A stretch of DNA of 64,000 bases from contig JAICMG010000001.1 in the NCBI GenBank assembly GCA_025929365.1, positions 1,214-65,213 of the forward strand, in the 5' to 3' direction. This document shows positions 5,335 to 44,698 of this stretch, in pieces; the stretch's first letter is position 1, and each line of letters begins with the position of its first letter. The notes beneath the pieces are model-generated. The model worked only from the letters and a program-made list of their open reading frames with translations. It was not told the origin of the DNA and searched no databases. Origin of the DNA: Frankiaceae bacterium (GTDB taxonomy: Bacteria > Actinomycetota > Actinomycetes > JAFAQI01). A program made the translations under genes and the position numbers.

Positions 5335-5599
5335 CGTCAGGTCTGGCGGATTCAGTTGTGGTTGAGGCTGCGCTGATTCGAGCGGGGCTGGATCGGGTGA
5401 ATGGCCGGATCACCTGGTACGCACCGGCTGCGCCACCCAAGATACCAAGCGCCAATCCGAGCAATGCGAGGAGGGGTGAGGTCCCCCACGCACGGTCGGC
5501 GAGGACACCGAGGAACACGCCGAGGCCCACGGTAGTTCCGAACGTTGCACCGACGCCCAGCAGCGTCGCGAGGTTCATCGTCCGCGGGTTGTCGGGCAC
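5309..5599 (-). CDS. AtpZ-like small membrane protein (putative F0F1-ATPase accessory subunit)
   Basis: 96 aa with two Gly/Ala-rich TM helices. Position upstream of atpI/atpB is typical for the ATPase_gene1 family. Confidence 0.55.
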   Translation of the reverse strand: MPDNPRTMNLATLLGVGATFGTTVGLGVFLGVLADRAWGTSPLLALLGLALGILGGAAGAYQVIRPFTRSSPARISAASTTTESARPDDEVRSDEQ

Positions 5600-5605
5600 C
5601 TCCGG

Positions 5606-10303: not shown

Positions 10304-10394
10304 CGATTGGTCGCCGGGTCCCCGGGCGGGGTGAACCGGTACCTGTAGCTCCAGTGTGCCTGAACCAGGCAAGCGGCCGGGTTTGTTCCCGGGT

Positions 10395-13555: not shown

Positions 13556-14479
13556 TTAGAGGGGGGCGAGGTGGGCGCCCTTCCGGTCGACGTCGAGAGG
13601 TAGCGCGCTCCACCCGCGGCGGGCGAACGTCACGGCCCGGTCACGGCTGTCGGTCGTGGTGAGCGCGAGCACGCTCGGGCCCGCGCCGGAGACGACGGCG
13701 GGAATTCCCGCGTCGCGAAGTTCGGCGACCAGCGCGGCCGTCTTCGGCATCGCCTCCGCGCGGTACGGCTGATGCAGCCTGTCCTCGGTCGCGCCGAGGA
13801 GGTCGTCGGGATGCGAACGAAGCGCTTCGACGAGCAGCGCGGCGCGAGCGGCGTTGGCCACCGCGTCGGCGTGCGGCACCGACTCAGGCAGCAGCTTGCG
13901 CGCGGCCTTCGTCGACGAGCTCGATCCGGGGACGAAGGCAACCGGTGCAAGGGCGTCCGACACCGGCACCTTGATCGCGCGCGCACCGGACTCGTCGTTC
14001 CACGCGATCGTCAAGCCACCCAGCACGCAAGCAGCAACGTTGTCGGGATGCCCTTCCAGCTCGGCGGCGTGCGCGAGTACGGCCGCGTCATCCATGCGCT
14101 CGCTGCCGCCGACGACGAGGCCGCGGGCGGCGACGACACCCGCCACAATCGCGGCGGCCGACGAGCCGAGACCGCGGCCGTGCGGAATCCGGTTCGCGCA
14201 GACGACCTCCAAACCGGCCGGGGCACCACCCAGCACCTTGAACGTCGCGCGCATCGACTTGACGACGAGGTGACGCGCGTTGCGCGGGACGCTCGCCGCA
14301 CCCATCCCTGCGACATCGACGGTCAGCCCCGCTTCGTCGGTGACTCGCACGACGACGTCGTCGTACAGCTCTAGAGCGAGCCCCAGCGCGTCGAACCCCG
14401 GGCCGAGGTTGGCACTCGTCGCGGGCACGCGCACCCGCACCGCCGCAGCCTTGAACGTTGGCCCAGAACGACGCGCCAC
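13556..14479 (-). CDS. thrB: homoserine kinase
   Basis: GHMP kinase with ATSANLGPGFDALGLAL and the PHGRGLGSSAA motif. GTG start at 14479 overlaps the thrC TAG stop by 1 nt (TAGTG). The upstream 38 aa of the ORF are not ThrB-like. Confidence 0.9.
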   Translation of the reverse strand: MARRSGPTFKAAAVRVRVPATSANLGPGFDALGLALELYDDVVVRVTDEAGLTVDVAGMGAASVPRNARHLVVKSMRATFKVLGGAPAGLEVVCANRIPHGRGLGSSAAAIVAGVVAARGLVVGGSERMDDAAVLAHAAELEGHPDNVAACVLGGLTIAWNDESGARAIKVPVSDALAPVAFVPGSSSSTKAARKLLPESVPHADAVANAARAALLVEALRSHPDDLLGATEDRLHQPYRAEAMPKTAALVAELRDAGIPAVVSGAGPSVLALTTTDSRDRAVTFARRGWSALPLDVDRKGAHLAPL

Positions 14480-15552
14480 TAGAGGTCCAAGGCCTCGGCT
14501 GCGGCGGAGACTTCGGCGGCGATCGTCAACGGCGCCGGCGCGCCGGCGATCGCCCATTCCGGATCCTTCAATCCGTTTCCGGTCACGGTGCACACGACCC
14601 GAAGGCCCGTGTCGAGCGTGTTCTCGCGACGTGCCTGGAGCAACCCGGCGACGCTCGCCGCGCTCGCCGGCTCGACGAACACTCCTTCTTCTCTGGCGAG
14701 GATCCGGTACGCCGCCAGGATGTCGCGGTCGGTCACCGCCTCGATCGCTCCGCCCGACTCGTCACGCGCGATCAGCGCCTGCTGCCACGACGCCGGGTTG
14801 CCGATCCGGATCGCCGTGGCGATGGTCTGCGGCGAGCGCACCGGCGCTCCTCGCACGATCGGCGCCGCGCCGGCTGCCTGGAAGCCGCGCATGATCGGAC
14901 GATGCGTCGAGATGCTGTCAGCGGCGTACTCGACGTAGCCCTTCCAGTACGCCGTAATGTTGCCCGCGTTGCCGACCGGCAGGCAGTGCACGTCCGGGGC
15001 ATCACCGAGGGCGTCGCAGATCTCGAACGCTGCGGTCTTCTGACCTTCGATGCGGAACTCGTTGACCGAGTTGACGAGCGCGACCGGGAACTTGTCGGCG
15101 AGGTCGCGGGCGAGGTTCAGGCAGTCGTCGAAGTTGCCGTCGACCTGCAGCAGCCGCGCGCCGTGCACGAGCGCCTGCGCCAGCTTGCCCATCGCGATCT
15201 TGCCGCGCGGGACCAGCACCGCGCAGACCATGCCGGCGCGCACTGCGTACGCCGCTGCGCTCGCCGAGGTGTTTCCGGTCGATGCGCAGATGACGGCCTT
15301 CGCGCCCTCCTCGGCCGCCTTGCTCATCGCCATCGTCATGCCACGGTCCTTGAAGGACCCCGTGGGGTTGAGGCCTTCGACCTTGAGATGCACCTCGCAG
15401 CCGGTGCGCTCCGACAACCGCGGAGCAGTCACGAGCGGAGTGCCCCCCTCGAGCAGCGTGACGACCGGCGTGGCGTCGGTGACGGGGAGGCGGTCGCGGA
15501 ACTCCTCGATGACACCGCGCCAGGGCGCGGACCGGGTGATCGCCGCCGTCAT
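14479..15552 (-). CDS. thrC: threonine synthase
   Basis: 357 aa, PLP-binding [19 protein letters not shown]. Collinear with M. tuberculosis ThrC along its whole length. Confidence 0.95.
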
Positions 15553-16853
15553 GCGCCACCTCCCTCCACCCGCATCACGCTGGCGACGGCGCGTACGACG
15601 TCCAGCCGGCGCAGCTCCTCGACGGTGGCTGCAAGTGCGGCATCCGTCGCAGCGTGCGTCACGAGATCCAAGGTGGCATCGTCGCCGTGGCCTTCCTGGC
15701 GCACGGTCTGGATCGAGACGTCATGGACGGCGAACGCCTGGGCGACGCTGGCGAGCACGCCCGCCTTGTCCGCAACGTCGAGGCTCACGTGGTAGCGGGT
15801 GATCGTCTCGCCCATCGGACGGATCGGAAGCGCGGCGTACGACGAGTCGCCGGCACCTCTTGCACCCGACAACCGGTTGCGGCACACCGCGACGAGGTCG
15901 CCAAGCACGGCGCTCGCGGTGGGAGCGCCTCCCGCGCCGCGGCCGTAGAACATGAGCTGCCCTGCGGCGTCGGCCTCGATGAACACCGCGTTGTAGGCAT
16001 CGCGAACCCCGGCGAGCGGGTGGCTGCGCGGCAGGATCGCCGGATGCACGCGCACGCCGACGGACTCACGGCCATTGCGATCGGGAGCGCGCTCGGCGAT
16101 CGCGAGCAGCTTGACGACACCGTCCATGTCACGCGCGCTCTTCACGTCGCCCGCCGTGACGTCGGAGATGCCCTCGCGGTGCACATCGGCCGCGGTCACG
16201 CGAGTGTGGAACGCAAGACCCGCCAGGATCGCCGCCTTGGCTGCGGCGTCGAAACCGTCCACGTCCGCCGACGGATCGGCCTCGGCGTAACCGAGCGCCT
16301 GCGCCTCTTCCAGCGCGTCGGTGAAGCTCGCGCCGGTCGAGTCCATCTTCGTGAGGATGTAGTTGGTGGTGCCGTTCACGATGCCGATGACCCGATTGAC
16401 CCGGTCACCGGCGAGTGACTCGCGCAAGGGTCGCAGCAGCGGGATTGCGCCGGCGACACTCGCCTCGCAGTAGAGATCGGTGTTGCCGCGCTCGGCGGCG
16501 TCGTACAACGAGCTGCCGTCTTCGGCGAGCAGCGCCTTGTTGGCGGTGACGACGGAGGCTCCGCGCTCCAGCGCAGTGATGAGGAGTGACCGGGCCGGCT
16601 CGATCCCGCCGATCACCTCGATGACGACATCGACGTCGTCGCGCGCGACGAGCGCGGCGCTGTCGGTGGTGAACAGCGACGGGTCGACGGAGACGTCGCG
16701 GCTGCGTTGCGGTCTGCGGACCGCGATGCCCGCCAGCTCCACGGGCGCGCCGATCCGGTGCGCAAGGTCCTCGGCGTGAGCCTCGATCAGCCGTACGACC
16801 TCGCTGCCGACGACACCGCAGCCAAGGATCGCCACCTTCAGCGGCTTGCTCAT
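15549..16853 (-). CDS. hom: homoserine dehydrogenase
   Basis: From the internal ATG the sequence reads [20 protein letters not shown] (Rossmann fold), with a C-terminal ACT domain. ATGA overlaps with both lysA and thrC. The upstream 62 aa of the ORF are junk. Confidence 0.93.
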
Positions 16854-18235
16854 CCGACGTCCAGGCCGAGCAGGTCCTCGAGGGTCTCCCGGCGCAGCAT
16901 CACGCGGCTGGTGCCCCCCTCGACGGCAACGACCGGAGGACGCGGCACGGCGTTGTAGTTGCTGGCCATCGAGCGACAGTAGGCGCCCGTGGCCGCTACG
17001 GCGAGCAGGTCGCCGGGCGCAAGGTCGCTCGGCAGCCACAGATCCCGCACCACGATGTCCCCTGCCTCACAGTGCTTGCCGACCACGCGCGCGAGCATCG
17101 GAGCGGCGTCGCTGTCCCGCGATGCGAGGACGCAGGTGTACGACGCGTCGTACAGCGCGGTGCGGATGTTGTCGCTCATCCCGCCGTCGATGCTGACGTA
17201 GGTACGGATGCCGTCGATCGGCTTGACGGTGCCGACCTCGTACAGCGTCACGCCCGCTGGCCCGACGATGGCGCGGCCCGGCTCGACCGCGAGCCTGGGC
17301 ACCGGCAGCGACGCTGCCTCGCACTCGCGCTCCACAATCGCGCGAAGCTGCTTCGCGACGTCGGCGACCTCCGCCGGGTCGTCGTCCGCCGTGTAGGCGA
17401 TTCCCAGCCCACCGCCGAGATCCAGCTCGGGCAGGGTGACGCCGACCGCGTCGCGCACCGTCGCGAGCAGTCCGACCACCCGGTGCGCGGCAACCTCGAA
17501 ACCCGCCGTGTCGAATATCTGCGAGCCGATGTGGCTGTGCAAACCGACCAGTTCGAGTGACGGCAGCATGGAAACCCGGCGCACCGCCTCGAGCGCGGCG
17601 CCACCGGCGAGGGAGAAGCCGAACTTCTGGTCCTCGTGGGCGGTCGCGATGAACTCGTGCGTGTGGGCCTCGACGCCGACAGTGACCCGGACCAGGACGC
17701 GCTGCCTGACCCCTGCTGCCTCCGCAACGTGGGCGAGGCGGGCGATCTCGTGCTCGCTGTCGACGACGATTCTCCCGACGCCGGCCGACACCGCCGCGAC
17801 GAGCTCGTCACGCGACTTGTTGTTGCCGTGCATGAGGATCCGCTCCGGCGGGAACCCGGCGGCCAGAGCGGTGGCGAGCTCGCCACCGCTCGACACGTCG
17901 AGCGACAGACCCTCTTCATTCACCCAGCCGGCAAAGCCCTTCGAGAGGAAGGCCTTTGCCGCGTAATAGATGTCGGTGTCCTCACCGAACGCCGCACGAT
18001 AGCCGCGGCAACGGGCACGGACGTCGTCCTCGGCGAGCAGGTACGCCGGCGTGCCGTGCTGCGTCGCCAGGTCGCGGACGTCGCAACCACCGATGTGGAC
18101 GACCCCGCCCCGGCGCTCTGTGCCGAGCGGCCAGATCCGCGCGTCGAGCTCACCCAGTGCGTCGGGCGGAGGGCCGAGCGGATGCGGCGGCGACGTGACG
18201 TCGCCGTGCAAGGCTCCGGCGGGATGGGCTCTCAT
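16850..18235 (-). CDS. lysA: diaminopimelate decarboxylase
   Basis: 461 aa, fold-type III PLP enzyme (…[10 protein letters not shown]…, …[15 protein letters not shown]…). Confidence 0.94.
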
Positions 18236-18289
18236 GGCCGGGGCCCCCGGGGCGTTGTGAGCGAAGCGAAGAGCGTCATGGGGTAGGCA

Positions 18290-19945
18290 CTACATCCGTT
18301 CCGGGGCGGCGACCCCGAGCAGCCCGAGGCCGCCGGCGAGCACGATGCGGGTCGCTTCGACCAGCCACAGCCGCGCCCGGGTCAGGTCGGTCGGCGGGTC
18401 GTCGCCCATCGGAAGGACGCGACACGCGTCGTAGAAGCGGTGGTAGGTGCCGGCGAGGTCCTCGAGGTAGCGCGCGATGCGATGCGGCTCGCGAAGCTCA
18501 GCCGCGCTCGCCACGATCCGGGGGAACTCCCCCAGCGATGCCAACAGGTCGCCCTCCCGCGGCTCGGCGAGCAGCGAACCGTCGAACTCATCGCCACGGC
18601 TGATCCCGAGGTCTGCCGCATTGCGAAGCAACGACGAGATCCGCGCGTGCGCGTACTGCACGTAGAAGACGGGATTGTCGTTGGTCTGCCGCGTCCACAG
18701 GTCGAGGTCGATGTCGATCGGCGAGTCGCTGCTGTAGCGCGCAAGTGCGTAGCGCGCGGCATCGACGCCGATCGCTTCCACGAGGTCCGCGAGGAGTACG
18801 ACGTTCCCGGCGCGCTTGGACATCCGGACCGGCTCGCCGTCCTTGACGAGGTTGACCATCTGCCCGATCAGCACCTCGATCGTGCGGTCAGGGTCGTCGC
18901 CGAAGCACGAGGCGATGGCGCGCAACCGGCCGACGTAACCGTGATGGTCTGCACCGAGCATGTAGATGCACCGGTCGAAGCCGCGCTCTCGCTTGTCGAG
19001 GTAGTAGGCGCAGTCGGCGGCGAAGTAGGTCCACTCGCCGTCGCTCTTGCGAATCACCCTGTCCTTGTCGTCCCCGTACCGGGTGGTACGAAGCCAGATG
19101 GCGCCGGCCTCCTCGAACACCTCACGCTGCTCGGTGAGGCGACCGAGCGCGGCGTGAAGCTCGCCCTTGTCGTGCAGTGACTTCTCGTTGAAGTAGACGT
19201 CGAAGACGACGCCGAAGTCGGCAAGCGAGCTCTTGATCTCGGCAAACATCCGCTCGACGCCTTCGACCCGGAAGAGCTCGAGTGCCTCCGCGTCGTCGAG
19301 AGCGGTGACATCGGGATGAGCGGCAACGATCGCGGCGGCGATCTCCCCGATGTACTCGCCGGCGTACCCGTCCTCCGGAATCTCCTCGCCACGAGCGGCG
19401 GCAAGAAGCGAGCGGGCGAAGCGCTCGATCTGCGAGCCGGCGTCGTTGAAGTAGTACTCGCGCGTGACGTCCGCGCCGGCCGCGCTCAGGACCCGGCCGA
19501 GCGCGTCACCGACCGCTGCCCACCGAACTGCGCCGATGTGGACCGGCCCAGTCGGGTTGGCCGAGACGAACTCGAGGTTGATGCGCTGTTTGACGAGGCT
19601 GTCGCTGCGGCCATAGTCGGCTCCCGCCGCGACGATCGTGCGAGCCAGCTCGCCCTGCGCCGACGCCGCGAGGGTGATGTTGAGGAACCCGGGTCCCGCG
19701 ACCTCGACCGCCTGGACTCCGGTGGTGTCGCGCAAGCGGCCGGCGATGACCTCCGCGACCTCTCGCGGCGGGCGTCCGGCGGCCTTGGCGAGCTGCAGCG
19801 CCACGTTCGTGGCGTAGTCGCCGTGGTCGCGGTTCTTGGGCCGCTCGACGAGCGTCGTCTCCGGAGCCTCGACCGAGAGCTCGCCGGCCGCCACGGCAGC
19901 GCGAACCGCCGCCACGATGGCGTCACCGAGATCGGCTGGAGTCAC
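18290..19945 (-). CDS. argS: arginine--tRNA ligase
   Basis: 551 aa, class I aaRS with HIGH-like [11 protein letters not shown] and KMSKR-like MSKRAG. Confidence 0.95.
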
Positions 19946-20030
19946 CCATCGAGGTTATCGGTTGCGATCTAACGATTTGCGGCGCTCAGAACCCACCAGC
20001 CGCGGAAACGCGAGGCCGATCGCCGCAACG

Positions 20031-20405
20031 TCAGGCCGCCTCGCCGGCGAGATTGCGGATGATCGTCACGAGCTCGTCCGGGTCGAACGGTTTGGTGAGG
20101 TAGGCGTCGACGCCGATCCGCTCGCCGTGCTGGATGTCCGCGTTCTGCGCGCGCGCCGACAGCAACACCACTTTGATGTGCGCGGTGTCCGGGTTCTGCC
20201 GCAGGCGCGTGGCCGTCTCCCACCCGTCGAGTCTCGGCATCATCACGTCGAGCGTCACGACATCTGGCGCGATCTCGCCGATGCGCTCGATCGCCTCCTG
20301 ACCATCGGTGGCCGTGGCGACGTCGAAGCCTTCGAGCTCCAGGTTGACGGTGATCAGCTGGCGGATCACGTCGTCGTCCTCGACGACGAGGACCCGGATC
20401 GGCAC
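20031..20405 (-). CDS. stand-alone response-regulator receiver (CheY-like REC domain only)
   Basis: 124 aa: VLVVEDDD…phospho-acceptor D in TLDVMMPRLDGWE…K in YLTKPFD. No output domain. GTG start lies 9 nt after the desaturase stop. Confidence 0.88.
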   Translation of the reverse strand: MPIRVLVVEDDDVIRQLITVNLELEGFDVATATDGQEAIERIGEIAPDVVTLDVMMPRLDGWETATRLRQNPDTAHIKVVLLSARAQNADIQHGERIGVDAYLTKPFDPDELVTIIRNLAGEAA

Positions 20406-20414
20406 GCGTCGACC

Positions 20415-21404
20415 CTATCCAGCCGGTCGGGCGCGAAGGGCTCGCCACAGCGCGGGGTAGCTGGGCCAGGTGATCGGCTCGGTGACCCAGCCCGCCGCCT
20501 CGAGCTCGACCTGCAAGGCAGGAAGGTTGCGCCACGGGATGGCGATGTCGACGTGGTGCGCGAGATGCCAGCCGATGTTGAACGGCACCAGCCAGAAGCG
20601 CGCCAGCCAGGATTGGCGGACGTGGTGCGTCGTGAGGCGCCGGTCCTTCGAGCGGACCATGCCGCCGTGTTCCGCGATGGATCGCAGCCGGTTGATGACC
20701 CGCCACACCGTCAGCCACGGGCCGAGCCACAGCAGCAGCCAGAGCCACCAACGTCCGACGGCGATCCCGGCCGCGATCAGCGGTAGCTGCATCACGAGGA
20801 TCTTGAGGACGGTCGGGCGGGCAAACGAGGTCCGCAGGCCGCGAAGCAGACCCTTGAGGTTCTTCCAACCGCTGTTGCCGAAGGCGTCGCGGCGCATCTT
20901 CCGCCAGAACGACGCGCGCGTGATCGGGTAGCCGTTGTAGAGGTTGAGGTCGGGTTCGTTGGGCCCGAACTCGTCCTTGTGGTGCGCGAAGTGCACGCGC
21001 CGATACAGGTCGAACGGGAAGAACGACGGGTAGCCGATCACCCAGCGTCCGACGAAGTCGTTGGCCCGCTTGTTCGTGAACAACAGGCGGTGCGCGGCCT
21101 CGTGGCCGAGGCTCGCGAACCTCGCCTGGGCGGGGCCCATCATCACGAACGCTGCCGCGTAGGCGAAGGGGTTCCCTATCCACACCGCCAGACCGACCGT
21201 CGCAAACGCCTGGCCCCAGGTCAGCACGACACTGCCGACATTGCGGTACGACGCGATCCGTCGCAGCTCGGCCCGGATCTCAGGGACGGGTACGCCAGTC
21301 GCCGTCAGTCGCTCGGTGGGGAGGACGTCCGGCAGCGCGTCCCCGGTCGGCACGACCGTCGTGCGCGACTCGACCGGCATTGACGTGATCATCACGGAAC
21401 ACAT
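20415..21404 (-). CDS. membrane fatty-acid desaturase family protein
   Basis: Three His boxes (HEAAH, HFAHH, HHVD) and several TM helices. N-terminal start is uncertain (ATG at 21404 or earlier). Confidence 0.8.
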   Translation of the reverse strand: MCSVMITSMPVESRTTVVPTGDALPDVLPTERLTATGVPVPEIRAELRRIASYRNVGSVVLTWGQAFATVGLAVWIGNPFAYAAAFVMMGPAQARFASLGHEAAHRLLFTNKRANDFVGRWVIGYPSFFPFDLYRRVHFAHHKDEFGPNEPDLNLYNGYPITRASFWRKMRRDAFGNSGWKNLKGLLRGLRTSFARPTVLKILVMQLPLIAAGIAVGRWWLWLLLWLGPWLTVWRVINRLRSIAEHGGMVRSKDRRLTTHHVRQSWLARFWLVPFNIGWHLAHHVDIAIPWRNLPALQVELEAAGWVTEPITWPSYPALWRALRARPAG

Positions 21405-23881: not shown

Positions 23882-23953
23882 TGCCCCCGGGGCGATTCGA
23901 ACGCCCGCACCCGCCTCCGGAGGGCGGTGCTCTATCCCCTGAGCTACGGGGGC
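23882..23953 (-). tRNA. tRNA-Arg (anticodon CCG)
   Basis: Reverse complement GCCCCCGTAGCTCAGGGGATAGAGCACCGCCCTCCGGAGGCGGGTGCGGGCGTTCGAATCGCCCCGGGGGCA folds into a cloverleaf. Perfect 7-bp acceptor stem, GTTCGAAT T-loop, anticodon loop CU-CCG-GA. No encoded CCA. Confidence 0.9.
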
Positions 23954-36133: not shown

Positions 36134-37369
36134 GTGACTGAAGCGGATGCGACCCTCAACGCCGCGATCCCCGAGGCCGGCCTGGGCGAGCGGCAGGCCA
36201 CCGAGGACATGACGGCGCTCCTCGACTTCTCCTCGCCCCACTCCCGGTTCCGGAGCCTCACCGAGTCCGGCGGCTACCTCGTGCCGATGGAAGGCATGGC
36301 GATGCAGTTCGATCGCGAGTCGATCGAGTTCGTCCTGCACAATCCAGAGCTCTTCTCCTCGCGGATCGACCTCGGGCTGGGCAACGTCCGGCCGCTGATC
36401 CCGCTCAACGTCGACCCACCGCAGCACTCGAACTTCCGGCGGCTGCTCGATCCGTTGTTCTCGCCGAAGAAGATGACGGCGTATGAGCCGGACATCGCCC
36501 GACGCGCGAACACCCTCATCGACACCTTCATCGATAACGGCGGCTGCAACTTCTCCGACGACTTCGCCGATGTGCTCCCGAGCACCATCTTCCTGGACCT
36601 GACCGGCCTGCCGGAGGAGCGGCTCGACGAGTTCCTCCACCTGCGTGACGGCATCCTGCACCCGGAGAAGCACGACGAGCTCGCCGCCTTCGATCCCGAG
36701 GTACGCACTCGCGTGCTCTTCGGCACCGGCGAGAAGATCTACGCGCTGTTCACCGAGCTCATCAACGAACGCCGCAGGCAGCCGGGCGACGACGTCATCT
36801 CGCAGTTTCTCGCTGCCGAGGTCGACGGCGCCCGACTCACCCACGACGAGATCCTCGACATCCTGTTCCTGTTCCTGATCGCGGGCCTCGACACGGTCAG
36901 CGACACGCTCACCTGCATGTACGCGTTCCTCGCCCGCAACCCCGACCACCGCAAGCAGATCGTCAACGACCCGGACTGCCTCGACAACGCCGTCGAGGAG
37001 ATGCTGCGCTGGGAGGCACCGGTCCCGTTCTCCTCGCCGCGGTCGGCGACCCAGGACGTCACCCTTCCCAACGGCTGCCCGGTCACCGCCGGATCGATGG
37101 TGCTGTGTGCCTACGGCTCGGCCAACGTCGACCCCACGGAGTACCCGGACGCCCACGAGGTCCGCTTCGATCGCACCCGCAACCGCCACATCACCTTCGG
37201 GATGGGTCCCCACCGCTGCCTCGGGTCACACCTCGCCCGGCGGGAGCTGCGCGTCACCCTGCGGGAGTGGCACCGGCGCATTCCTGAGTACTGGCTGACT
37301 CCGGGCCACGAGGACCTCGTCTACCCGCCCGGCCTTCGGCACGTGAAGGACCTGATGCTCAGCTGGTGA
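36134..37369 (+). CDS. cytochrome P450
   Basis: Heme-binding loop FGMGPHRCLG, I-helix AGLDTVSD, ExxR motif (EEMLRW). Confidence 0.93.
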   Translation: MTEADATLNAAIPEAGLGERQATEDMTALLDFSSPHSRFRSLTESGGYLVPMEGMAMQFDRESIEFVLHNPELFSSRIDLGLGNVRPLIPLNVDPPQHSNFRRLLDPLFSPKKMTAYEPDIARRANTLIDTFIDNGGCNFSDDFADVLPSTIFLDLTGLPEERLDEFLHLRDGILHPEKHDELAAFDPEVRTRVLFGTGEKIYALFTELINERRRQPGDDVISQFLAAEVDGARLTHDEILDILFLFLIAGLDTVSDTLTCMYAFLARNPDHRKQIVNDPDCLDNAVEEMLRWEAPVPFSSPRSATQDVTLPNGCPVTAGSMVLCAYGSANVDPTEYPDAHEVRFDRTRNRHITFGMGPHRCLGSHLARRELRVTLREWHRRIPEYWLTPGHEDLVYPPGLRHVKDLMLSW

Positions 37370-37379
37370 GGCGCGAGCG

Positions 37380-38189
37380 TCATCCGCTGCGCTGGATCAG
37401 GTAGCCGACGTCACCCATGGCCACCAGCGGTCTGTGCACCGCGAGGATGCAGACATCGTCTGGCGCCTCCACCGGGTCGTGCGGGAGGCGGCGCAGCACC
37501 CGGTCGACCAGGCGCTCGAGCGCGGCCTGGCTCAACGCCGGCACATAGATCTCCTCGACGACTGCTCGTAGCCCCGCCATCTGGTCGCCGAGATCGAGGC
37601 CGGGCCGCTCGATCAAACCGTCGCTGTAAGCGAGGAGCAGCCCTCCCGGCGCGAGGCGCACCCGGTCGACCAGCACATGCCGATCGACGAACCCGCTGCC
37701 CAACGGCGGTGCGCTCGCGGCTGACAGCAGATGAGCAGGGTCGTCCACCCCCGCGAAGACCGGCGGCGGGTGGCCGGCGCTCGCGTACTCCAGCCAGTCG
37801 GTCCTGCGGTCGTGGATTCCGAGCCACAGCGTCGCGAGCTCCTCCGGGCCCCGACTGCACTGCAGCACGTCCAGCAGCCGAGCGATCTCGACGACCGAGA
37901 GCCCGTCCATCGCCAAGGCGCGGTTCTCGGCGCGGAGCACGTGCATGCGGCCGGCCGCCTCGACGCCATGACCGACGACATCACCGACCGCGATCAACGT
38001 CCGGTCCTCGTCCAGAGCGACTACGTCGAAGAAGTCTCCCGCGATCGGCTCGCCCCGCAGTCCCGACGGGAAGCAGCGGCCGGCTGTCGCCATCTCGGTC
38101 GAGCGGCGCGCAACCGCGAAACCGGAGGCGGGTTCTTCTACGTCGCGCGAGCTCGTCGCCACGATCGGCTCGCGAGCAGCATCAGCCAC
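37380..38189 (-). CDS. PP2C-family (PPM) serine/threonine phosphatase, RsbU/SpoIIE-like
   Basis: Motifs GDFFDVV, AVGDVVGHG, LLLAYSDGL and ILAV. GTG start at 38189 overlaps the stop of the upstream membrane ORF (GTGGCTGA). The 40 N-terminal residues of ORF 37380..38309 are out of character and not used. Confidence 0.82.
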   Translation of the reverse strand: MADAAREPIVATSSRDVEEPASGFAVARRSTEMATAGRCFPSGLRGEPIAGDFFDVVALDEDRTLIAVGDVVGHGVEAAGRMHVLRAENRALAMDGLSVVEIARLLDVLQCSRGPEELATLWLGIHDRRTDWLEYASAGHPPPVFAGVDDPAHLLSAASAPPLGSGFVDRHVLVDRVRLAPGGLLLAYSDGLIERPGLDLGDQMAGLRAVVEEIYVPALSQAALERLVDRVLRRLPHDPVEAPDDVCILAVHRPLVAMGDVGYLIQRSG

Positions 38190-38499
38190 CAATCGCCCCG
38201 GTGGTTCGTTGCCGTGTGCCCAAGGCGCTGTCCGTGAAGTCGACCCGGTCCAGCTCGAGCTGTTCAGCCTCGAAGCGGTCGCGCCGGCTGTTCGCGATGG
38301 AGAAGCCAAGCCCGAGCGCCATCACCACGACGGCGACGACCCAAAGGACGTGCCAGGCGAAACCGACGATGCCCATGACGAAAGCAATGCCGAGGACACT
38401 GGTCAGGACGACGTTCGGTGCCTTCTTCTGGCGGAGGGCTCGGGTCAGCCGGTCGTCGGACCCAGGATTCGAAACGTCGTGCCGCAATCTGGTTGTCAT
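38182..38499 (-). CDS. small two-TM membrane protein, translationally coupled to the PP2C phosphatase
   Basis: 105 aa. High GC3. Two hydrophobic helices (VVLTSVLGIAFVMGIVGFAWHVLWVVAVVVMALGLGF). Confidence 0.6.
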   Translation of the reverse strand: MTTRLRHDVSNPGSDDRLTRALRQKKAPNVVLTSVLGIAFVMGIVGFAWHVLWVVAVVVMALGLGFSIANSRRDRFEAEQLELDRVDFTDSALGTRQRTTGAIGG

Positions 38500-38701
38500 T
38501 GATGGTCCTCAACGCCGGTGCTACGAAGCGGCGAGGGAGCACGAGGTCCGGACAGACCCAGGCGCGCAGAACTTCCTTATTGTCGCACGAGACGCCCGCG
38601 GAAGCGACTGTGCGAGACTGGCAATACCAAACGCGTGTGAGCCGTGTACGGACCCCGCATCTCGCCGCTTCCCTTCTGATGCCTCCCGAGGCGGCGACAG
38701 C

Positions 38702-39400
38702 GTGCCCGACCCTGCCGATCCCGTCGACGCCGCGCCAGGCGTCGCTCAGGCGGAGCGGCTGTGCCGTGAAGCCATCAGCGCGGTCGACGTGGACGGCGCG
38801 GGGCTGTCGATGATGACCTCCGCAGGACACCGCGGAACGGTGTGCGCCACGGACGATGTTGCGCGCCGCGTGGAGGATCTGCAGTTCGCGCTTGGCGAAG
38901 GACCTTGCTTCGACGCGTTCACCGGCGGTGGCCCGGTGCTCATTGCGGACATGAACGTCGCGCTGGGCGCCGAAGGGGCGCGCTGGCCCGTCTTCACGGA
39001 GGCCGTCGCCGCGGCAGGGGTCGGCGCGCTGTTCGCCTTCCCGCTGCTGATCGGCGCCATCCCGCTCGGCGCACTCGATCTCTACCGCCGGCGGGCCGAA
39101 GGCCTTACTCCCGTCGAGCTGCGGGCCGCATGGCGGATCGCGGACGCCGCCGCAGACGCCTTGCTCGACGTGCGCTCCGGAACCGCGATGGACCTTCCTG
39201 CCGACGCTGCGCCCGCCGGCGCGTCGTACCGCCTCGAAGTCCACCAGGCCACCGGCATGGTGTCGGTGCAGCTCGGCGTGCCCATCGACGAGGCCTTCCT
39301 GCGGCTTCGCGCCTACGCCTACTCCCGAGAACGCAACATCGACGACGTCGCGCGCGACGTCGTCGCGGGGCGCCTACAGTTGTTGCCGGAAGAGGACTGA
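38702..39400 (+). CDS. GAF-ANTAR RNA-binding regulator (paralog 1)
   Basis: GAF-like N-terminal region (…FALGEGPCFDAFTGGGPVLIAD…) and C-terminal ANTAR helix set (…HQATGMVSVQLGVPIDEAFLRLRAYAYSRERNIDDVARDVV…). GTG at 38702. The upstream 330 codons of the track ORF are antisense junk. Confidence 0.82.
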   Translation: MPDPADPVDAAPGVAQAERLCREAISAVDVDGAGLSMMTSAGHRGTVCATDDVARRVEDLQFALGEGPCFDAFTGGGPVLIADMNVALGAEGARWPVFTEAVAAAGVGALFAFPLLIGAIPLGALDLYRRRAEGLTPVELRAAWRIADAAADALLDVRSGTAMDLPADAAPAGASYRLEVHQATGMVSVQLGVPIDEAFLRLRAYAYSRERNIDDVARDVVAGRLQLLPEED

Positions 39401-39402
39401 CC

Positions 39403-40173
39403 ATGACGGAACCACGCTCGGAAGCAACCCTCAGTGCAACGGCAGTCGCCCAGCAGGCGAGGCTGGCCGAGGTCTTCGTCGTCTTGGCCGACACCCTTGT
39501 CGCCGACTTCGACGTCGCGGGCTTGCTCGATCTGCTCGTCAGAACCTGCGTCGATGACCTCGGGGCGACAGCCGCCGGGCTCCTCCTCAGCGACCACCAG
39601 GGCGTGCTGCGCGTCGCGGCGTCGTCGAGTGAGGCGACCGCGTTGCTCGAGGCCTTTCAGATTCAGGCAGAGGAGGGCCCTTGCCTCGACGCCTTCCACA
39701 CGCGGCGGCCCGTCTCCGCGGACCTCACCGCCTCCGACAGCGCCTGGCCCACCTTCGCTCCGTTCGCGGTCTCGCACGGGATCAACCACGTCGACGCCCT
39801 GCCGATGCGGCTGCGCGACCAGTCGATCGGCGCGCTGAACCTGTTTCACGAGCATGATCTGACAACCATCGATCTTCGGGTTGCCCAGGCACTCGCGGAT
39901 GTCGCGACCATCGGAATCCTGCATCAGGAAGGGGCGCGTGCCGGCGACCTGATCATCGAACAGCTTCAGTCAGCGCTCAACAGCCGCGTCGTCATCGAAC
40001 AGGCCAAAGGCGTCCTCGCCGCGACCGGCCGAGTCGACATGGACACCGCGTTCCAGCAGCTGCGCAAATACTCCCGCGACAACAACGCAAAGCTGAGTGT
40101 GCTGGCCAGCCAGATCGCCAATCGCACGCTTGACCCTTCCGTCATCCTCCAGTGGCGGCAGCCGCCTGCCTGA
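39403..40173 (+). CDS. GAF-ANTAR RNA-binding regulator (paralog 2)
   Basis: ATG lies 2 nt after the paralog-1 stop. GAF-like region (…EEGPCLDAFHTRRPV…SIGALNLFHE…) and canonical ANTAR (…VVIEQAKGVLAATGRVDMDTAFQQLRKYSRDNNAKLSVLASQIA…). Confidence 0.85.
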   Translation: MTEPRSEATLSATAVAQQARLAEVFVVLADTLVADFDVAGLLDLLVRTCVDDLGATAAGLLLSDHQGVLRVAASSSEATALLEAFQIQAEEGPCLDAFHTRRPVSADLTASDSAWPTFAPFAVSHGINHVDALPMRLRDQSIGALNLFHEHDLTTIDLRVAQALADVATIGILHQEGARAGDLIIEQLQSALNSRVVIEQAKGVLAATGRVDMDTAFQQLRKYSRDNNAKLSVLASQIANRTLDPSVILQWRQPPA

Positions 40174-40209
40174 GGCTGGATGCACCTGTCGGCCCATCGC
40201 AACGAGAGG

Positions 40210-40380
40210 TCACTTCTCGGCGCGCCGGAAGTCGACCGGCAGGTGGGCCTTGCAGATGCAGCTGCGGACCAGCGAGCCGGCTGCCGTCGCGCGACAGTAC
40301 CGAGCTGCGATCGGATCGTGATCGGCCGGCGGATGCCCGCACAGGCATGCGATGACAGACGCTTCAACGGTGCGGGTCAT
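40210..40380 (-). CDS. putative small Cys/His-rich (metal-binding?) protein, 56 aa
   Basis: MTRTVEASVIACLCGHPPADHDPIAARYCRATAAGSLVRSCICKAHLPVDFRRAEK. GGAGG lies 6 nt upstream of the ATG. High GC3. Symmetric CxCxH … CxCxxH arrangement. Confidence 0.35.
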   Translation of the reverse strand: MTRTVEASVIACLCGHPPADHDPIAARYCRATAAGSLVRSCICKAHLPVDFRRAEK

Positions 40381-40640
40381 CCGAGACCTCCGCCGGGCCG
40401 TCGGTGCAAGGTGCTCATGGTCGGGATCGTGCCCATCAGTCGCAGACGGGCCGAGGGCGCGAACGGACCTGACAGGCCTAGGCGTGGTGAACAACGCGAA
40501 GGCTACTCCGCAACTGCCCGGCAGATCCGTGTCACACTCGACCTACCAGTCGCGGCTGGATCTCATCAAGACCTCGTGCTCACTCGCCGCCTCGATGCGC
40601 TCGCAACCGATGCTCGCCGGCGGATGGGGAAGCGTCCTAC

Positions 40641-42773
40641 ATGTGGCTCGATGCAGATCCCCTGAACGCCGCAGCCCCGGTGAGCCTGGAGCAGCCCGGC
40701 GGTCAGGTGACGATCGTCGAAGGCTCCTCCTTCTGCCTGTCCGGACGCGCGGGCGACATCCGTTCCGGGGCCGCGGACGGCCTGTTCGTGCTCGACGTCA
40801 GGGTTCTCAGCGAGTGGGAGCTCCGACTCGACGGGCACGCTCTGGAGCCGCTGTCTGTGAGCGGCGCGGAACCGTTCAGCGCAACGTTCGTCGCGCGTGG
40901 TCATCCGGGTGCTGATGGTGAAAGCACCTCCCTCGTCGTCCGGCGCCGCTGGGTGGGATCCGGAATGCGCGAGGACCTGGAGCTGCACAACTACAGCAGC
41001 CGAGAACTGACCCACGAGGTTGAGCTCAGAATCAGCAGCGATTTCGCCGACCTCTTCGCTGTCAAGGCCGGACGACCCAGTGCAGACGCTGCGAAGGACC
41101 CGGGGAGCGAACCTCTGCACGCCCGCTCCACGCATGGCTCGATCCTGCGAGAGGTGCTCGTCAGCGAGTGCTCCGCGGCGCAGCCCGGGCGGCCCGGACC
41201 GACCGGGCTGACCTGGACGGTGGTCATTCCGCCCAAGGCGTCGTGGCACACCTGCCTGGAGGTTTCGGTCCGGATCGGCGGCCACGCTGTCCCGTTGCAG
41301 TACGGATGCGGCCGGACGCCGCAGACGTCCAGGCCGGCCAGACGGCTCGCCGGCTGGCGCCAGCGGACACCAGTGCTGAGCTCCTGCGATGCTCGCCTCG
41401 ATGCCGCGATCGTCAGGTCGGTGGACGACATCAGCTCGCTCGTCATCGAAGACCCGCTACATCCCCAGTCACCGGTCGTCGCCGCGGGCGCACCGTGGTT
41501 CATGGCGCTGTTCGGCCGGGACTCGCTGCTCACGTCGTACATGACGATGATCGTCGATCCGGCGCTCGCGATAGGGACGCTGCAGACCTTGGCGCGGCTG
41601 CAGGGCAAGAAGACCGATGCCCTCACCGAGGAGCAACCCGGCCGGATCCTGCACGAGGTGCGGTTCAACTCCTCCGCGACGGCCGACATGGAAGATGGCC
41701 GCATCTACTACGGAACCGTCGACGCAACCCCGCTGTTCGTGGTGCTGATCGGTGAGCTCAGCCGCTGGGGCGTCGACCGCGCGGTCGTCGACGAGCTGCT
41801 CCCCCACGCGGACCTGGCGCTGGAGTGGATCGAGCGCTACGGCGACATCGACGGCGACGGCTACGTCGAGTACCAGCGGTCGTCGGCGCAAGGTCTGGCA
41901 AACCAAGGCTGGAAGGACTCCTGGGACGGCGTCAACGCCGCGGACGGCACCCTCGCGATCGCACCCGTCGCGCTCGCCGAGGTCCAGGGCTACGTCTACG
42001 CCGCGTATCTCGCTCGTGCCGACCTTGCTGCCGAGCGCAACGACACCGCCACCGCCGAGAGCTACACGCAAAAGGCCACGAAGCTTCGATCCGCGTTCAA
42101 CCGTGACTTCTGGGTCGCCGCCAAGGGCTGGTACGCGATTGCCCTCGACGGCGACAAGAAGCAGGTCGATGGGCTGGCGAGCAACATGGGCCACTGCCTG
42201 TGGTCCGGGATCATCGATCCGGATCGTGCGGGTCGTGTCGCCGCGCACCTCGTCTCCCCCGAGCTGTTCAGCGGGTGGGGGGTGCGCACCCTGGCGACCA
42301 CGATGTCCCGGTACAACCCGCTGAGCTACCACAACGGCTCGGTCTGGCCGCACGACAGCGCGATCGCTGCCGCCGGCCTCATGCGTTACGGCTTCACCGA
42401 CGAGGCGTGCCGCATTCTCGACGCGGTCCTCGACGCGTCGGTGACGAACGGCGGCCGGTTGCCGGAGCTGTACGCCGGAGTCGCGCGGGAGGAACTGCCG
42501 GTCCCGGTGGCGTACCCGACCTCCTGCTCACCGCAGGCATGGTCGTCCGCGTCCGCGTTGTTGGTGCTTCGCACGCTGTTGCGCTTCGAGCCCCGGCTCG
42601 ACCTCGGGCAGATAGGAATCTCCCCCGTCGACGGCGATCACCGTGTCGGAAATGTGCAGATCTCACTTGCTCGTTCCCGGCTGACTGTCCTCACCACGCC
42701 CGACGGTCAGGTCGAGGTCAACGGCGTACCGGCTGGCGTGGCGCTCGTGGTCGCGCCTCCTGCCACGGCCTAG
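40641..42773 (+). CDS. amylo-alpha-1,6-glucosidase / glycogen-debranching-enzyme-like protein (GDE_N + GDE_C)
   Basis: 710 aa. N-terminal …VTIVEGSSFCLSGRAGDI… and a C-terminal (alpha/alpha)6 catalytic region (…GWKDSWDG…, …YHNGSVWPHD…). Confidence 0.8.
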   Translation: MWLDADPLNAAAPVSLEQPGGQVTIVEGSSFCLSGRAGDIRSGAADGLFVLDVRVLSEWELRLDGHALEPLSVSGAEPFSATFVARGHPGADGESTSLVVRRRWVGSGMREDLELHNYSSRELTHEVELRISSDFADLFAVKAGRPSADAAKDPGSEPLHARSTHGSILREVLVSECSAAQPGRPGPTGLTWTVVIPPKASWHTCLEVSVRIGGHAVPLQYGCGRTPQTSRPARRLAGWRQRTPVLSSCDARLDAAIVRSVDDISSLVIEDPLHPQSPVVAAGAPWFMALFGRDSLLTSYMTMIVDPALAIGTLQTLARLQGKKTDALTEEQPGRILHEVRFNSSATADMEDGRIYYGTVDATPLFVVLIGELSRWGVDRAVVDELLPHADLALEWIERYGDIDGDGYVEYQRSSAQGLANQGWKDSWDGVNAADGTLAIAPVALAEVQGYVYAAYLARADLAAERNDTATAESYTQKATKLRSAFNRDFWVAAKGWYAIALDGDKKQVDGLASNMGHCLWSGIIDPDRAGRVAAHLVSPELFSGWGVRTLATTMSRYNPLSYHNGSVWPHDSAIAAAGLMRYGFTDEACRILDAVLDASVTNGGRLPELYAGVAREELPVPVAYPTSCSPQAWSSASALLVLRTLLRFEPRLDLGQIGISPVDGDHRVGNVQISLARSRLTVLTTPDGQVEVNGVPAGVALVVAPPATA

Positions 42774-43806
42774 GTGCGTCCTCCCGGGCCTTGATCACCC
42801 GCCGGTAGAGCGCAAGGTGGTCCGCCACGACGCGTGCCGTCGAGAACCGCGCCGTCACGGTCGCCCGACACGCGTCCCGGTCGAGGCGGCCGACCTCGGC
42901 CAGGCGAGCCACCATGGTCGCCTCGTCGCCGCACAAGAACCCGGTGACACCATGCTCGACGATCTCCGGGGCTGCTCCCAACGGGGATGCCAGGACCGGC
43001 GTGCCGGCGGCAAGGGCCTCGACCATCACCAGGCCGAACGGCTCCGCCCACTGGATCGGGTTGAGCAGCGCCACCGCTCCTTGGACCAGCGTCAGCACGT
43101 CGGCCTGCCCCAGTTCGCCGACGTACTCGACATCGCCGACGAGCAACGGCTTGACGTTCGCCTCGAACCAGGCCTGCTCCGCCGGTTCCCGCATCTTCGC
43201 CGCGATTCGCAGCGGCAGACCCGCTGCGTGTGCCACGCGCGCCGCGGCGTCCACGCCCTTGTCCGGATGCATCCGGCCGACGAACGCGAGATATCCGCCA
43301 TCGCCGGCACCCGCCGTCACCTCGTCAGCATCGAGCCCGTGGTGGATGACGGTCGCGACCTGGATTCCCTCGTGTGCTGCCTCGACGGCCTGCGAGTGAG
43401 AGATCGCAATGATCGGGACGCGGCGAGCGAACGATCGGTAGACCTCGCTCACCTCGGGAGTGAACGGACCGTGACTGGTCGTGACCAGCGGGGGCGCACC
43501 TGGCCGCGTTCCGATGGCCGGGCCCGCCAGCGTGTGGTCGTGGACGATGTCACATCGGGCGAGACTGTCGTGCCCGCGAATCACGTGCGCGAGCTCGACG
43601 GTGGTGATCCCGATGTGCTCGGGCCGCGCGGGGAGGGTGTCGGCCACGGTCTCGACCGGACACGTGCTGTCACCCGCAGCGAAGAGCAGCACCTCGTGTC
43701 CGGCCGCCACCAGGCCGCGGGCCAAGCGATCGACGACGGCTTCGGTGCCGCCGTACAGCGGCGGCGGGACCGGAAGCCACGGCGGAGCGAGCAGACCGAC
43801 CTTCAC
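42718..43806 (-). CDS. glycosyltransferase family 4 (GT-B, group 1)
   Basis: From the GTG at 43806 the sequence reads VKVGLLAPPWLPVPPPLYGGTEAVVDRLARGLVAAGHEV, with a C-terminal E-x7-E-like region (…EPFGLVMVEALAAGTPVLAS…). The 3' end overlaps the GDE gene by 55 nt (convergent). Confidence 0.8.
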   Translation of the reverse strand: MKVGLLAPPWLPVPPPLYGGTEAVVDRLARGLVAAGHEVLLFAAGDSTCPVETVADTLPARPEHIGITTVELAHVIRGHDSLARCDIVHDHTLAGPAIGTRPGAPPLVTTSHGPFTPEVSEVYRSFARRVPIIAISHSQAVEAAHEGIQVATVIHHGLDADEVTAGAGDGGYLAFVGRMHPDKGVDAAARVAHAAGLPLRIAAKMREPAEQAWFEANVKPLLVGDVEYVGELGQADVLTLVQGAVALLNPIQWAEPFGLVMVEALAAGTPVLASPLGAAPEIVEHGVTGFLCGDEATMVARLAEVGRLDRDACRATVTARFSTARVVADHLALYRRVIKAREDAPRPWQEARPRAPRQPVRR

Positions 43807-43966
43807 GCCGCTCGCCGCCTTCAGATAGCCGCGGCAAGGGACTGCGCAAGGTCCGAACGGACCCCGGTCGCGAGGGAGTCTCAGTCTCGCACAGGGCACA
43901 CCCTGCGGCTTTCGCGAGTCTTCGGCTCCGCCCGGCCCTCGCGTTCGTCAGACGTGGGTGCGCGAG

Positions 43967-44698
43967 TCAGGTGGTAACGACGAGCGGAGTTCCCAGCGGT
44001 AGTCGCCCGGCAAGCATGGTGATCACCTGGTTGGACACCCGGATGCAGCCGTGCGTCACCGAGTGACCGATCGAGGACGGATCGCTCGTGCCATGCAGGC
44101 CGAGCTGCCCGGGCCCGCCGGCGAAGTGCTTCAGCACGGGTGAGAAGCCGGATAGCCCGAACGCGTAGGGACCGTATGCGCCACCGGGCTGCGGCTGCCG
44201 CAGCAGCGCGGTGAGGAAGAACGTGCCGCGCGGGGTCGGCGTCGCCGGCGCGCCCACCGCCGCCCGCGTTCGATAGACGAGCCGACCCGCGTCGTACAGC
44301 AGCAGCTGGTGGCGGGTCAGGGATACCTCGACGCGGTAGGCCACCCACATCAGCCGTACCGATGACTCCGGAATCCAGCCGGTGGACCCGTTGGGGCGAA
44401 TCGGCAACAGCACCTTCAGCCAGCTGCCGCTGCGCGCGACGGGCATCAAGGTGAGCGGCTCGCCGAAGCTGGTCGGGCTCGCCAGCCGCGTGACGACGGC
44501 ACCACTCGGCGTACGTCGGGCGACCAAATGGTGACGCAGGGCCTGCGCGACCCAGGTGTACGTCGGCGGAGCAGCAGCGGCAGCCCGCGTCGTGCCGCCG
44601 ATGCCCGCGTCCGTGAACGCGCATCCGGTGGCGGAAGCCGTCAGGGCCACGGCAAGCACGACCGCGGCGAGCGCACGGTGCGGAAGGGGCCTGGTCAC
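43967..44698 (-). CDS. L,D-transpeptidase (YkuD domain) lipoprotein
   Basis: Lipobox TASATGC. Catalytic HGTSDPSSIGHSVTHGCIRVSN motif. Confidence 0.85.
   Translation of the reverse strand: MTRPLPHRALAAVVLAVALTASATGCAFTDAGIGGTTRAAAAAPPTYTWVAQALRHHLVARRTPSGAVVTRLASPTSFGEPLTLMPVARSGSWLKVLLPIRPNGSTGWIPESSVRLMWVAYRVEVSLTRHQLLLYDAGRLVYRTRAAVGAPATPTPRGTFFLTALLRQPQPGGAYGPYAFGLSGFSPVLKHFAGGPGQLGLHGTSDPSSIGHSVTHGCIRVSNQVITMLAGRLPLGTPLVVTT

Follow-up and report, generated by a model that had tools for sequence, protein, structure and literature searches.

What function joins a SpoIIE/RsbU-type PP2C phosphatase to a pair of GAF-ANTAR proteins encoded beside it? The question is raised by a locus in a 64,000-nt stretch of contig JAICMG010000001.1 of a Frankiaceae bacterium, which was analysed at its full length, has a G+C content of 66–71% all along it and is referred to here as the window. 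An earlier description of this DNA from the letters alone, the original prediction, had outlined within it a signalling and regulatory module comprising a protein with two transmembrane helices (2-TM) and the PP2C on the minus strand, two tandem GAF-ANTAR genes (here A and B) on the plus strand, a 56-aa Cys/His protein, now assigned to the RGCVC family, and a glycogen-debranching-like (GDE-like) gene. All these open reading frames (ORFs) are present where it placed them, and the module, studied here as positions 37380–43900, is conserved in related contigs; because its genes recur together there in different orders, their proximity in the window is not due to chance. The transcription units of the module begin with copies of one cassette, a promoter-like motif followed by a short leader. 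The reading that we hold with about even confidence, from comparison of sequences, is that the A-B pair acts on the leader RNA to control translation, with the PP2C as one of the regulated genes.

A near-identical contig (L001) is present in the metagenome-assembled genome (MAG) assembly GCA_025980775.1, its PP2C being 99% identical to that of the window, and a sibling NCBI contig encodes A, B, RGCVC and 2-TM proteins exactly identical to the window's. The nearest named relatives of protein A belong to uncultured Actinomycetota, namely 'Mycobacteriales' and Acidothermaceae MAGs. Compared loci and contigs are designated by L-numbers; they are closely related sequences, and the p-values given below are thereby inflated. 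A survey anchored on A, with an alignment of A-type proteins as the query and species-representative genomes as the target, returned at least 562 loci; its counts refer to the best 80, spanning Actinoplanes and Streptomyces to Acidimicrobiia and Solirubrobacterales.

Promoter-plus-leader cassettes

The cassette begins with a -10-like motif, (C)GTGCGACACT, followed about 11–15 nt on by a leader of about 45 nt with a potential small GC-rich hairpin, carrying a GUCC-type loop, and then a C-rich block, CCCUCGCCGC. In many family members a complementary block, GCGGCGAG(G), lies 12–23 nt past CCCUCGCCGC and overlaps the Shine-Dalgarno region a few nt ahead of the start codon. The pattern GTG[CT][GC]A[CG]A[CA]T, describing the promoter-like motif, has four matches in the 64 kb against about one expected, and these stand ahead of 2TM-PP2C, A-B, GDE and a gene for a GT4 glycosyltransferase (Table 1).

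Exactly two copies of a 20-nt block of the leader are present in the window, at 38545 and 40465; both are also found in L002, with extended similarity around them. Assignment of this block as a plus-strand leader of A-B and GDE was rejected, since metagenome copies put the start codon at a fixed short distance on the opposite strand. The intergenic regions 38500–38700 and 40380–40640 are back-to-back promoter-plus-leader units. The original prediction had pointed to these same two regions as places to look for cis elements, and conserved elements do lie there; their strongest copies, however, are on the other strand, ahead of RGCVC and 2TM-PP2C, while GDE has a weaker sense copy and A-B a trace. 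The RGCVC leader is preceded by a TAGCCT -10-like hexamer at about 40500–40505, in an arrangement that is repeated in L002, L007 and L003. The weak A-B copy, located downstream of a shared promoter-like motif, is conserved in L002 and L007, and the GT4 leader has orthologous copies in the same two contigs. For the GDE orthologue in L110 the leader match is marginal (E=0.69).

Outside the window, a metagenome scan with a pattern built from the window's own two copies, and thus favouring near-identical ones, retrieved 36 stretches, of which about 24 were judged members of the family. Matches in L093, L095, L102, L104, L111, L113 and L116 were discarded as chance, because they fall in a conserved coding sequence (CCGGACAGGCCCAGGCGGTGCACCTTGCCGATCAC...) of unrelated contigs; by its appearance, this may be a transposase- or HTH-like gene. 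Iterated nhmmer searches over all compared loci gave 59 matches, 51 of them distinct. The element lies in sense with the downstream ORF, and in 50 of the 59 cases the start codon is found from 2 nt before to 78 nt after the end of the match, mostly 8–34 nt after it. The -10-like motif is conserved upstream of the element at other loci, as a hexamer (GACACT, GAGACT or GACAAT; TAGCGT or TACGGT in a variant class) about 11–15 nt away, and therefore the block should be the first ~45 nt of the mRNA.

The genes behind the element encode RGCVC proteins, a protein of about 80 aa with CxxC motifs, the PP2C orthologue (L004 and L125), GT4, GDE, fatty acid desaturases, DUF5994, PRC-barrel, GGDEF, CDO_I (cysteine dioxygenase) and DUF4389 proteins and an ABC ATPase. 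In the motif-anchored contigs with enough sequence (L103, L108, L121, L122 and L125), A-B is located 0.3–7 kb from the element. The order is element-CxxC-RGCVC-A-B and then element-PP2C in L125, and element-RGCVC-A-B-element-CxxC in L122. At least one copy is present in the window and in each of six related A-B loci (L002, L003, L004, L007, L126 and L128).

The ~80-aa CxxC proteins form a family left out of the gene calls, PCVYCREPIAAD..FVYWS..RLLSA.CP.C.R.VTL...TWRRW (CxxC...CxxC), which is encoded behind the leader, often followed by RGCVC, for example at 5525–5758(+) of L002 and also in L096, L098, L101, L105, L108, L119, L120, L122, L125, L011 and L075. It matched no Pfam or NCBIfam family apart from a weak hit to DUF7560 (21 bits) and is absent from the window. 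In L125 a P-type ATPase gene is divergent from the leader-CxxC unit (about 130 nt from the element, on the opposite strand, in L106 and L125), and in L126 a fragmented kdp operon (14081–20702) adjoins the A-B/DUF5994 cluster. An ion-related or osmotic theme may run through the leader neighbourhoods.

The GAF-ANTAR pair, the phosphatase and the other genes of the island

The original prediction regarded tandem paralogous GAF-ANTAR genes as uncommon. In this subfamily, which has at least 562 loci in species-representative genomes, they are nearly universal: A is directly followed by B on the same strand at 76 of the 80 best A-anchored loci, across the Actinomycetota, and two of the four exceptions are contig ends. 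A and B are two orthologous groups. In the window the two genes are 2 nt apart and their products share 24% identity.

The two proteins differ in their ANTAR domains. B matches PF03861 at 64.7 bits over profile positions 1–53 of 54, while the match of A is partial (profile positions 12–54) and marginal at 30.4 bits, the cut-off being 27.3 in both cases. RNA binding by NasR needs R340, K347, R366 and N373, as found by mutagenesis (PMC7496416). The window's B retains the equivalents of these residues (SRV..EQAKG..LRKYSRDNN); its A does not, having QATG for QAKG and Glu at the N373 equivalent. The same division runs through the two groups. At the K347 equivalent, Lys is present in none of 86 A-type proteins (T 48, Q 23, S 9, A 4) and in 68 of 78 B-type proteins; Asn at the N373 equivalent is found in 13/83 A-type against 58/75 B-type sequences, and Arg at the R340 equivalent in 57/83 against 75/75. 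The R366 equivalent is Arg in both (80/83 and 74/75). Decay of the second copy had been named as an outcome that would undo the proposal. The altered copy is the first gene, A, and B keeps its residues; because the alteration is conserved across the phylum, the residue patterns mark A as a specialised, conserved partner rather than a decayed copy.

The GAF domains of both types contain an invariant Q..GEGPC.DA, with one invariant Cys, and WP.F. These shared residues point to a common ligand or redox site. The GAF cysteine motif of PdtaS senses Cu and NO (PMC8131098), and the cysteine of the A and B domains recalls this motif by analogy only.

The regions upstream of A in other lineages have no element in common. 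In A-B operons of Actinoplanes and Dactylosporangium (L021, L058, L038, L051, L074 and L076) a different motif, CTGCCCYGGC...GGAAGGTGC...RTG, possibly a short upstream ORF or a hairpin, is located about 60–100 nt upstream of A and is unrelated to the leader element.

The phosphatase has an intact catalytic domain of the SpoIIE/RsbU type, with all the metal-site motifs (GDFFD, GDVVGHG, AGHPPP, SDGLIE and DDV) aligned with those of Rv1364c, and its nearest solved relative is the phosphatase domain of this Mycobacterium tuberculosis protein (9e-23). It carries no sensor domain. Its orthogroup is small, with about 26 proteins at E<1e-35 among 5.8 billion. No gene for a STAS or RsbW-like protein lies within 6 kb on either side of the PP2C on L001, or in five orthologous contexts, as the original prediction had said of the window; the combination of a STAS antagonist and an RsbW-like kinase beside the phosphatase, expected for RsbU-RsbV-RsbW partner switching, is thus missing from the contexts examined.

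Co-occurrence of PP2C and GAF-ANTAR genes, which the original prediction had proposed to check, holds within the PP2C orthogroup, where the A-B pair is present in all six contexts examined, and not for A-B loci in general. The pair is also present in L125. It is divergent from the PP2C in L002 and L007, 5 kb away in L003, and part of co-directional A-B-PP2C operons in L004 and L008, whose surroundings are otherwise unrelated; in the orthologous PP2C contexts A and B are 2–3 nt apart or overlap by 4 nt. Among the best 80 A-B loci, seven have any SpoIIE gene within 8 kb, which, by our rough estimate, is close to what the density of SpoIIE genes in these genomes would give as background, and L126 and L128 encode close relatives of A with no PP2C nearby. 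A general linkage of PP2C and A-B was rejected on the 7/80 count; the linkage is clade-specific. The PP2C is itself preceded by the leader element in three lineages (window, L004 and L125). The view of the phosphatase as the input to the GAF-ANTAR proteins is not supported, in view of this leader and of the near-background frequency.

A second, independent pairing of an A-type gene with a PP2C is found in Acidothermaceae-like MAGs (L013 9772–12282, L017 2689–5180 and L024 9772–12258), as an array A-B-[leader]-RGCVC-A'-large SpoIIE protein, in which the RGCVC gene ends within the third A-type gene, and the gene for a PP2C of about 590 aa comes directly after the latter.

Translational coupling of the 2-TM protein to the phosphatase is plausible, its exact form depending on the PP2C start chosen. 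The stop/start overlap claimed for the two genes exists, at 8 nt, if the upstream-most GTG of the PP2C is taken; an alternative start nine codons downstream, used by the gene call on L001, leaves a 19-nt gap to the 2-TM ORF instead. The 2-TM protein was rejected as a conserved PP2C partner, being absent from most orthologous contexts: L002, L004 and L008 have no homologue, and the sole one among the compared loci is a distant relative in L121 (133 bits, jackhmmer), encoded directly upstream of A-B.

RGCVC homologues adjoin A-B at other loci as well. The GDE gene is a single intact 710-aa ORF in the window and is split (163 + 560 aa) in the calls at 1391–3522 of L001, a split indicative of a frameshift or an error of assembly in this GCA_025980775.1 contig. 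Elsewhere in the window, Rfam models matched a tRNA at 23882–23953(-) and, at 10309–10345(-), a ribosomal-protein leader of the L31-Actinobacteria family (45 bits); both are ordinary features and confirm an actinobacterial origin.

Table 1. Genes, promoter-like motifs and leader copies of the island, by position in the window.
Feature	Position	Strand	Basis
SpoIIE/RsbU-type PP2C phosphatase	37380..38189	-	Pfam PF07228, E=3.3e-35, 122 bits, profile 1-191 of 192
105-aa protein, two predicted transmembrane helices, first gene of the 2TM-PP2C unit	38182..38499	-	ORF, G+C at third codon positions (GC3) 0.81
Leader copy 1, best family match, GCGCGCCUGGGUCUGUCCGGACCUCGUGCUCCCUCGCCGC, ends 25 nt before the 2TM ATG	38525..38570	-	nhmmer E=1.4e-11; pattern match
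-10-like motif GTGCGACAAT of the 2TM-PP2C unit	38579..38588	-	window motif scan
-10-like motif GTGCGAGACT of the A-B operon	38610..38619	+	window motif scan
Possible diverged A-B leader: CCGUGUACGG hairpin, CUCGCCGC block, GGCGGCGA 4 nt before GTG	38632..38701	+	4 bits to family model
GAF-ANTAR A, altered RNA-binding patch (QATG for QAKG)	38702..39400	+	GAF_2 1.9e-8; partial ANTAR
GAF-ANTAR B, canonical ANTAR paralogue	39403..40173	+	ANTAR 6.4e-18; GAF_2 4.6e-14
56-aa RGCVC-family Cys/His protein	40210..40380	-	NCBIfam NF038206, 52 bits vs cut-off 35, E=5e-14; GGAGG Shine-Dalgarno
RGCVC gene leader, CCCUCGGCCC variant	40443..40490	-	nhmmer E=1.6e-3; pattern match
-10-like motif GTGTCACACT of the GDE gene	40529..40538	+	window motif scan
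Weaker sense leader copy, ends 44 nt before the GDE ATG	40551..40596	+	nhmmer E=1.5e-4
GDE-like / MGH1-like glycoside hydrolase	40641..42773	+	GDE_N_bis, MGH1-like and GDE_C domains
GT4 glycosyltransferase, GTG start at 43806	42718..43806	-	Pfam annotation of orthologous genes
GT4 gene leader, full 3' module GGCGGCGAG 4 nt before GTG	43825..43874	-	nhmmer E=4.2e-5; spacer data
-10-like motif GTGCGAGACT of the GT4 gene	43883..43892	-	window motif scan

Possible control at the leader: RNA, DNA or phosphatase

In the mechanism proposed here, the region 37380–43900, from an uncultured actinobacterium of high G+C content, would form a compact island of one regulon. Its core is the tightly coupled A-B operon, and the surrounding 2TM-PP2C, RGCVC, GDE and GT4 units, and probably A-B itself, each have the cassette at their start. 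The leader would act as RNA, in which the C-rich block masks the ribosome-binding site. A and B, in the simplest case as a heteromer in which one ANTAR is functional, would bind the 5' hairpin region and shift the masking equilibrium, opening or closing the ribosome-binding site according to a signal sensed by the GAF domains. The PP2C would be a regulated gene and may feed back on the signalling. Which genes are present and in what order, how the cassette is conserved, oriented and placed, and the residue patterns are observations; RNA binding by A and B, the direction of regulation and the sensed signal are inferred. Action of A-B on the leader is the most economical reading because this pair is the sole recurrent regulator there and has an RNA-binding domain, and the PP2C looks regulated because it carries the leader itself. 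A target that has one small conserved hairpin instead of two would suit a heteromer in which one ANTAR alone is competent. Control at the ribosome-binding site would parallel the translational control by mycobacterial ANTAR targets, which overlap this site and repress translation (bioRxiv 10.1101/660928).

A structured leader RNA is plausible. Folds of single sequences contain a 5' hairpin, GCGCG..GGGUCU[GUCC]GGACCU..CGUGC, and then a helix of CCCUCGCCGC with the ribosome-binding region GCGGCGAGG. In the main class, the C-rich block pairs with its own downstream region at -14.4 kcal/mol, compared with -10.5 for shuffled sequences (Wilcoxon p ~1e-6, inflated by the relatedness of the sequences), and G-U pairs occur in the conserved stems. 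Between the complementary blocks the spacer is 12–23 nt long, whereas the 3' block is always 0–5 nt away from the start codon; such variation in spacer length is better accommodated by an RNA hairpin with a loop of variable size than by a rigid DNA dyad. No DNA-binding regulator recurs in the neighbourhoods examined.

Several results weigh against this reading. What links A and B to the leader is co-location only. By nhmmer the element was detected near A-B at 8 of the 80 genome loci, all in the nearest clade (L011, L013, L017, L020, L024, L050, L075 and L087), and therefore most A-B pairs need other or diverged targets; the copy ahead of A-B in the window is a trace. Covariation in the 5' hairpin was not significant, with 76.2% paired over 41 distinct leaders against 74.9% after shuffling, a value equalled or exceeded in 54 of 500 shuffles. 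RNAalifold, applied to MAFFT alignments, keeps just a 5-bp hairpin, and the folding z-scores of single sequences are weak (-2.0 to +0.9). In the CCUCGGCCC variant, to which the RGCVC leader of the window belongs, pairing with the Shine-Dalgarno region was not supported. Since a promoter motif accompanies every copy, the signal certainly has a DNA-level component. The leader also differs from the dual-hexaloop target known for ANTAR proteins. Separately, compensation at the level of classes between the CUCGCCGC and CUCGGCCC leaders was considered and was not supported.

The canonical mode of ANTAR action, assumed in the original prediction, combines tandem hexaloop hairpins with a terminator over the second hairpin, and neither was found. 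Dual hexaloops with A and G at loop positions 1 and 4 number seven in the window, at the chance level of 6.3 +/- 2.6 in shuffled sequences, and none of them falls in 36500–44500; with stems of at least 5 bp, there are none. Neither leader proposed as an antitermination target, that of A-B or that of GDE, contains an intrinsic terminator, the sole match in 37300–44000 being inside the GDE gene, so that there is no sign of antitermination; a scan for sigma-70 promoters found nothing in the leaders. The Rfam 15 covariance models likewise gave no match at the element, either at the gathering cut-offs or at E<=10 in the window, or at E<=1 in six related loci; it corresponds to no RNA family described there.

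The promoter motif also lends itself to an alternative that we consider unlikely, in which the cassette is a DNA-level signal, an alternative sigma factor promoter and/or an operator at about +5 to +45. The genes would then form a stress regulon under RsbU-type partner switching that includes the PP2C, and A-B would be just members of it, with their own RNA targets elsewhere. Each copy having its own -10-like motif at a fixed distance, the insignificant covariation and a DNA palindrome, GTCCGGAC, within the block are in its favour. So are the -10 regions of the variant class, which are G(N)GTA(C/G)-like and resemble SigB/SigF-type promoters, and the relationship of the phosphatase to Rv1364c, a SigF regulator. 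However, no sigma factor, anti-sigma factor, STAS protein or HTH regulator recurs beside the module in the examined contexts, no conserved -35 element is visible, and of the two complementary blocks, which lie 12–23 nt apart, the 3' one tracks the start codon as a mask of the ribosome-binding site would.

The original prediction had itself offered another model, in which the membrane-linked PP2C is the sensory input and dephosphorylates a GAF-ANTAR protein that blocks termination in the A-B and GDE leaders. The constant company of A-B in the PP2C orthogroup, including the co-directional operons of L004 and L008, speaks for it, as do the larger SpoIIE protein encoded after an additional A-type gene in L013, L017 and L024, the Thr or Ser found in 57 of 86 A-type proteins at the position of the RNA-binding Lys of B, and the lack of a STAS partner nearby. 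Nevertheless, we regard it as very unlikely: both the dual-hairpin motif and the terminator are lacking, 73 of the 80 A-B loci have no PP2C and the remainder are near the roughly estimated background, the PP2C is itself behind a leader, the module encodes no kinase, and the 2-TM protein is missing from most orthologous contexts. The least probable alternative is a self-contained RNA sensor independent of A-B, a riboswitch or an RNA thermometer masking the Shine-Dalgarno sequence, co-located with the pair through a shared stress theme (desaturases, and sugar-handling enzymes with a possible role in the synthesis or breakdown of compatible solutes); the masking architecture with its variable loop, these desaturase and sugar-handling genes and the absence of an Rfam match, which would make it a new class, agree with such a sensor, but about 35 nt of near-invariant sequence exceed the need of a thermometer, the structured part offers little room for a ligand pocket, and the tight clustering around an RNA-binding regulator pair would be left unexplained.

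The reading of A-B as a regulator of leader RNA can be extended to a more specific version, which is quite unlikely as a whole. In it, A would be a pseudo-ANTAR antagonist or co-receptor of B in a partner switch-like arrangement on RNA, and its state would depend on the GAF ligand and, within this clade, also on PP2C dephosphorylation, possibly at the Thr or Ser that replaces Lys. With one functional ANTAR, A-B would recognise a new class of single-hairpin leaders and switch the masking of the Shine-Dalgarno sequence on and off throughout a stress regulon, whose products would be small Cys-rich proteins, desaturases and sugar-handling enzymes.

Relation to known regulatory systems

The module resembles several characterized systems in part. 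As in the EutV, NasR and AmiR systems, the sensor domain occupies the N-terminus and the candidate target is located in 5' leaders; the full ANTAR domain of B aligns with those of EutV (6wsh), PAL (6hmj) and NasR (4akk) and keeps the equivalents of the four NasR residues. Unlike these systems, the sensor here is a GAF domain, there is an obligatory paralogue with an altered ANTAR surface, and in place of two hexaloops and a terminator the candidate target consists of one small hairpin and a Shine-Dalgarno-masking block. The actinobacterial PdtaS/PdtaR system (PdtaR being Rv1626) is similar in that its ANTAR targets overlap the ribosome-binding site (10.1101/660928) and in that a GAF cysteine motif, in PdtaS, acts upstream of an ANTAR protein (PMC8131098), A and B having an invariant GAF Cys. 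PdtaR, however, combines REC with ANTAR in a response regulator that depends on a kinase for its activation and binds the canonical dual stem-loop, whereas here GAF is fused to ANTAR, the proteins occur as an A/B pair, and the leader is different.

With the RsbU/RsbV/RsbW systems (Rv1364c; SpoIIE of Bacillus subtilis) the module shares a PP2C of the SpoIIE/RsbU family with all metal-site motifs. It differs from them in the absence of a STAS or RsbW-like kinase gene from the module and the orthologous contexts, in the lack of a sensor domain on the phosphatase and in the leader that precedes it. Like RNA thermometers and translational riboswitches that mask the Shine-Dalgarno sequence, the element has a C-rich block complementary to the ribosome-binding region with a variable loop between; unlike them, it has a long near-invariant 5' part, no match in Rfam 15, and many gene families gathered around an RNA-binding regulator pair.

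Among the ANTAR architectures of mycobacteria, GAF-ANTAR is reportedly the most common (10.1101/660928). Literature searches found no target or mechanism described for GAF-ANTAR proteins, and nothing on the A-B pair, ANTAR heterodimers, RGCVC or DUF5994. The locus supplies two proteins encoded as an obligatory A/B pair, one of them altered in its RNA-binding surface, together with a defined candidate target of about 45 nt that is directly usable in binding and reporter assays. The candidate regulon (RGCVC, CxxC mini-proteins, PP2C, desaturases, DUF5994, GGDEF and GT4/GDE) gives a context to families of unknown function. If the link between the pair and the leader is true, it would widen the range of RNAs recognised by ANTAR proteins and would add a heteromeric, pseudo-domain variant to the family.

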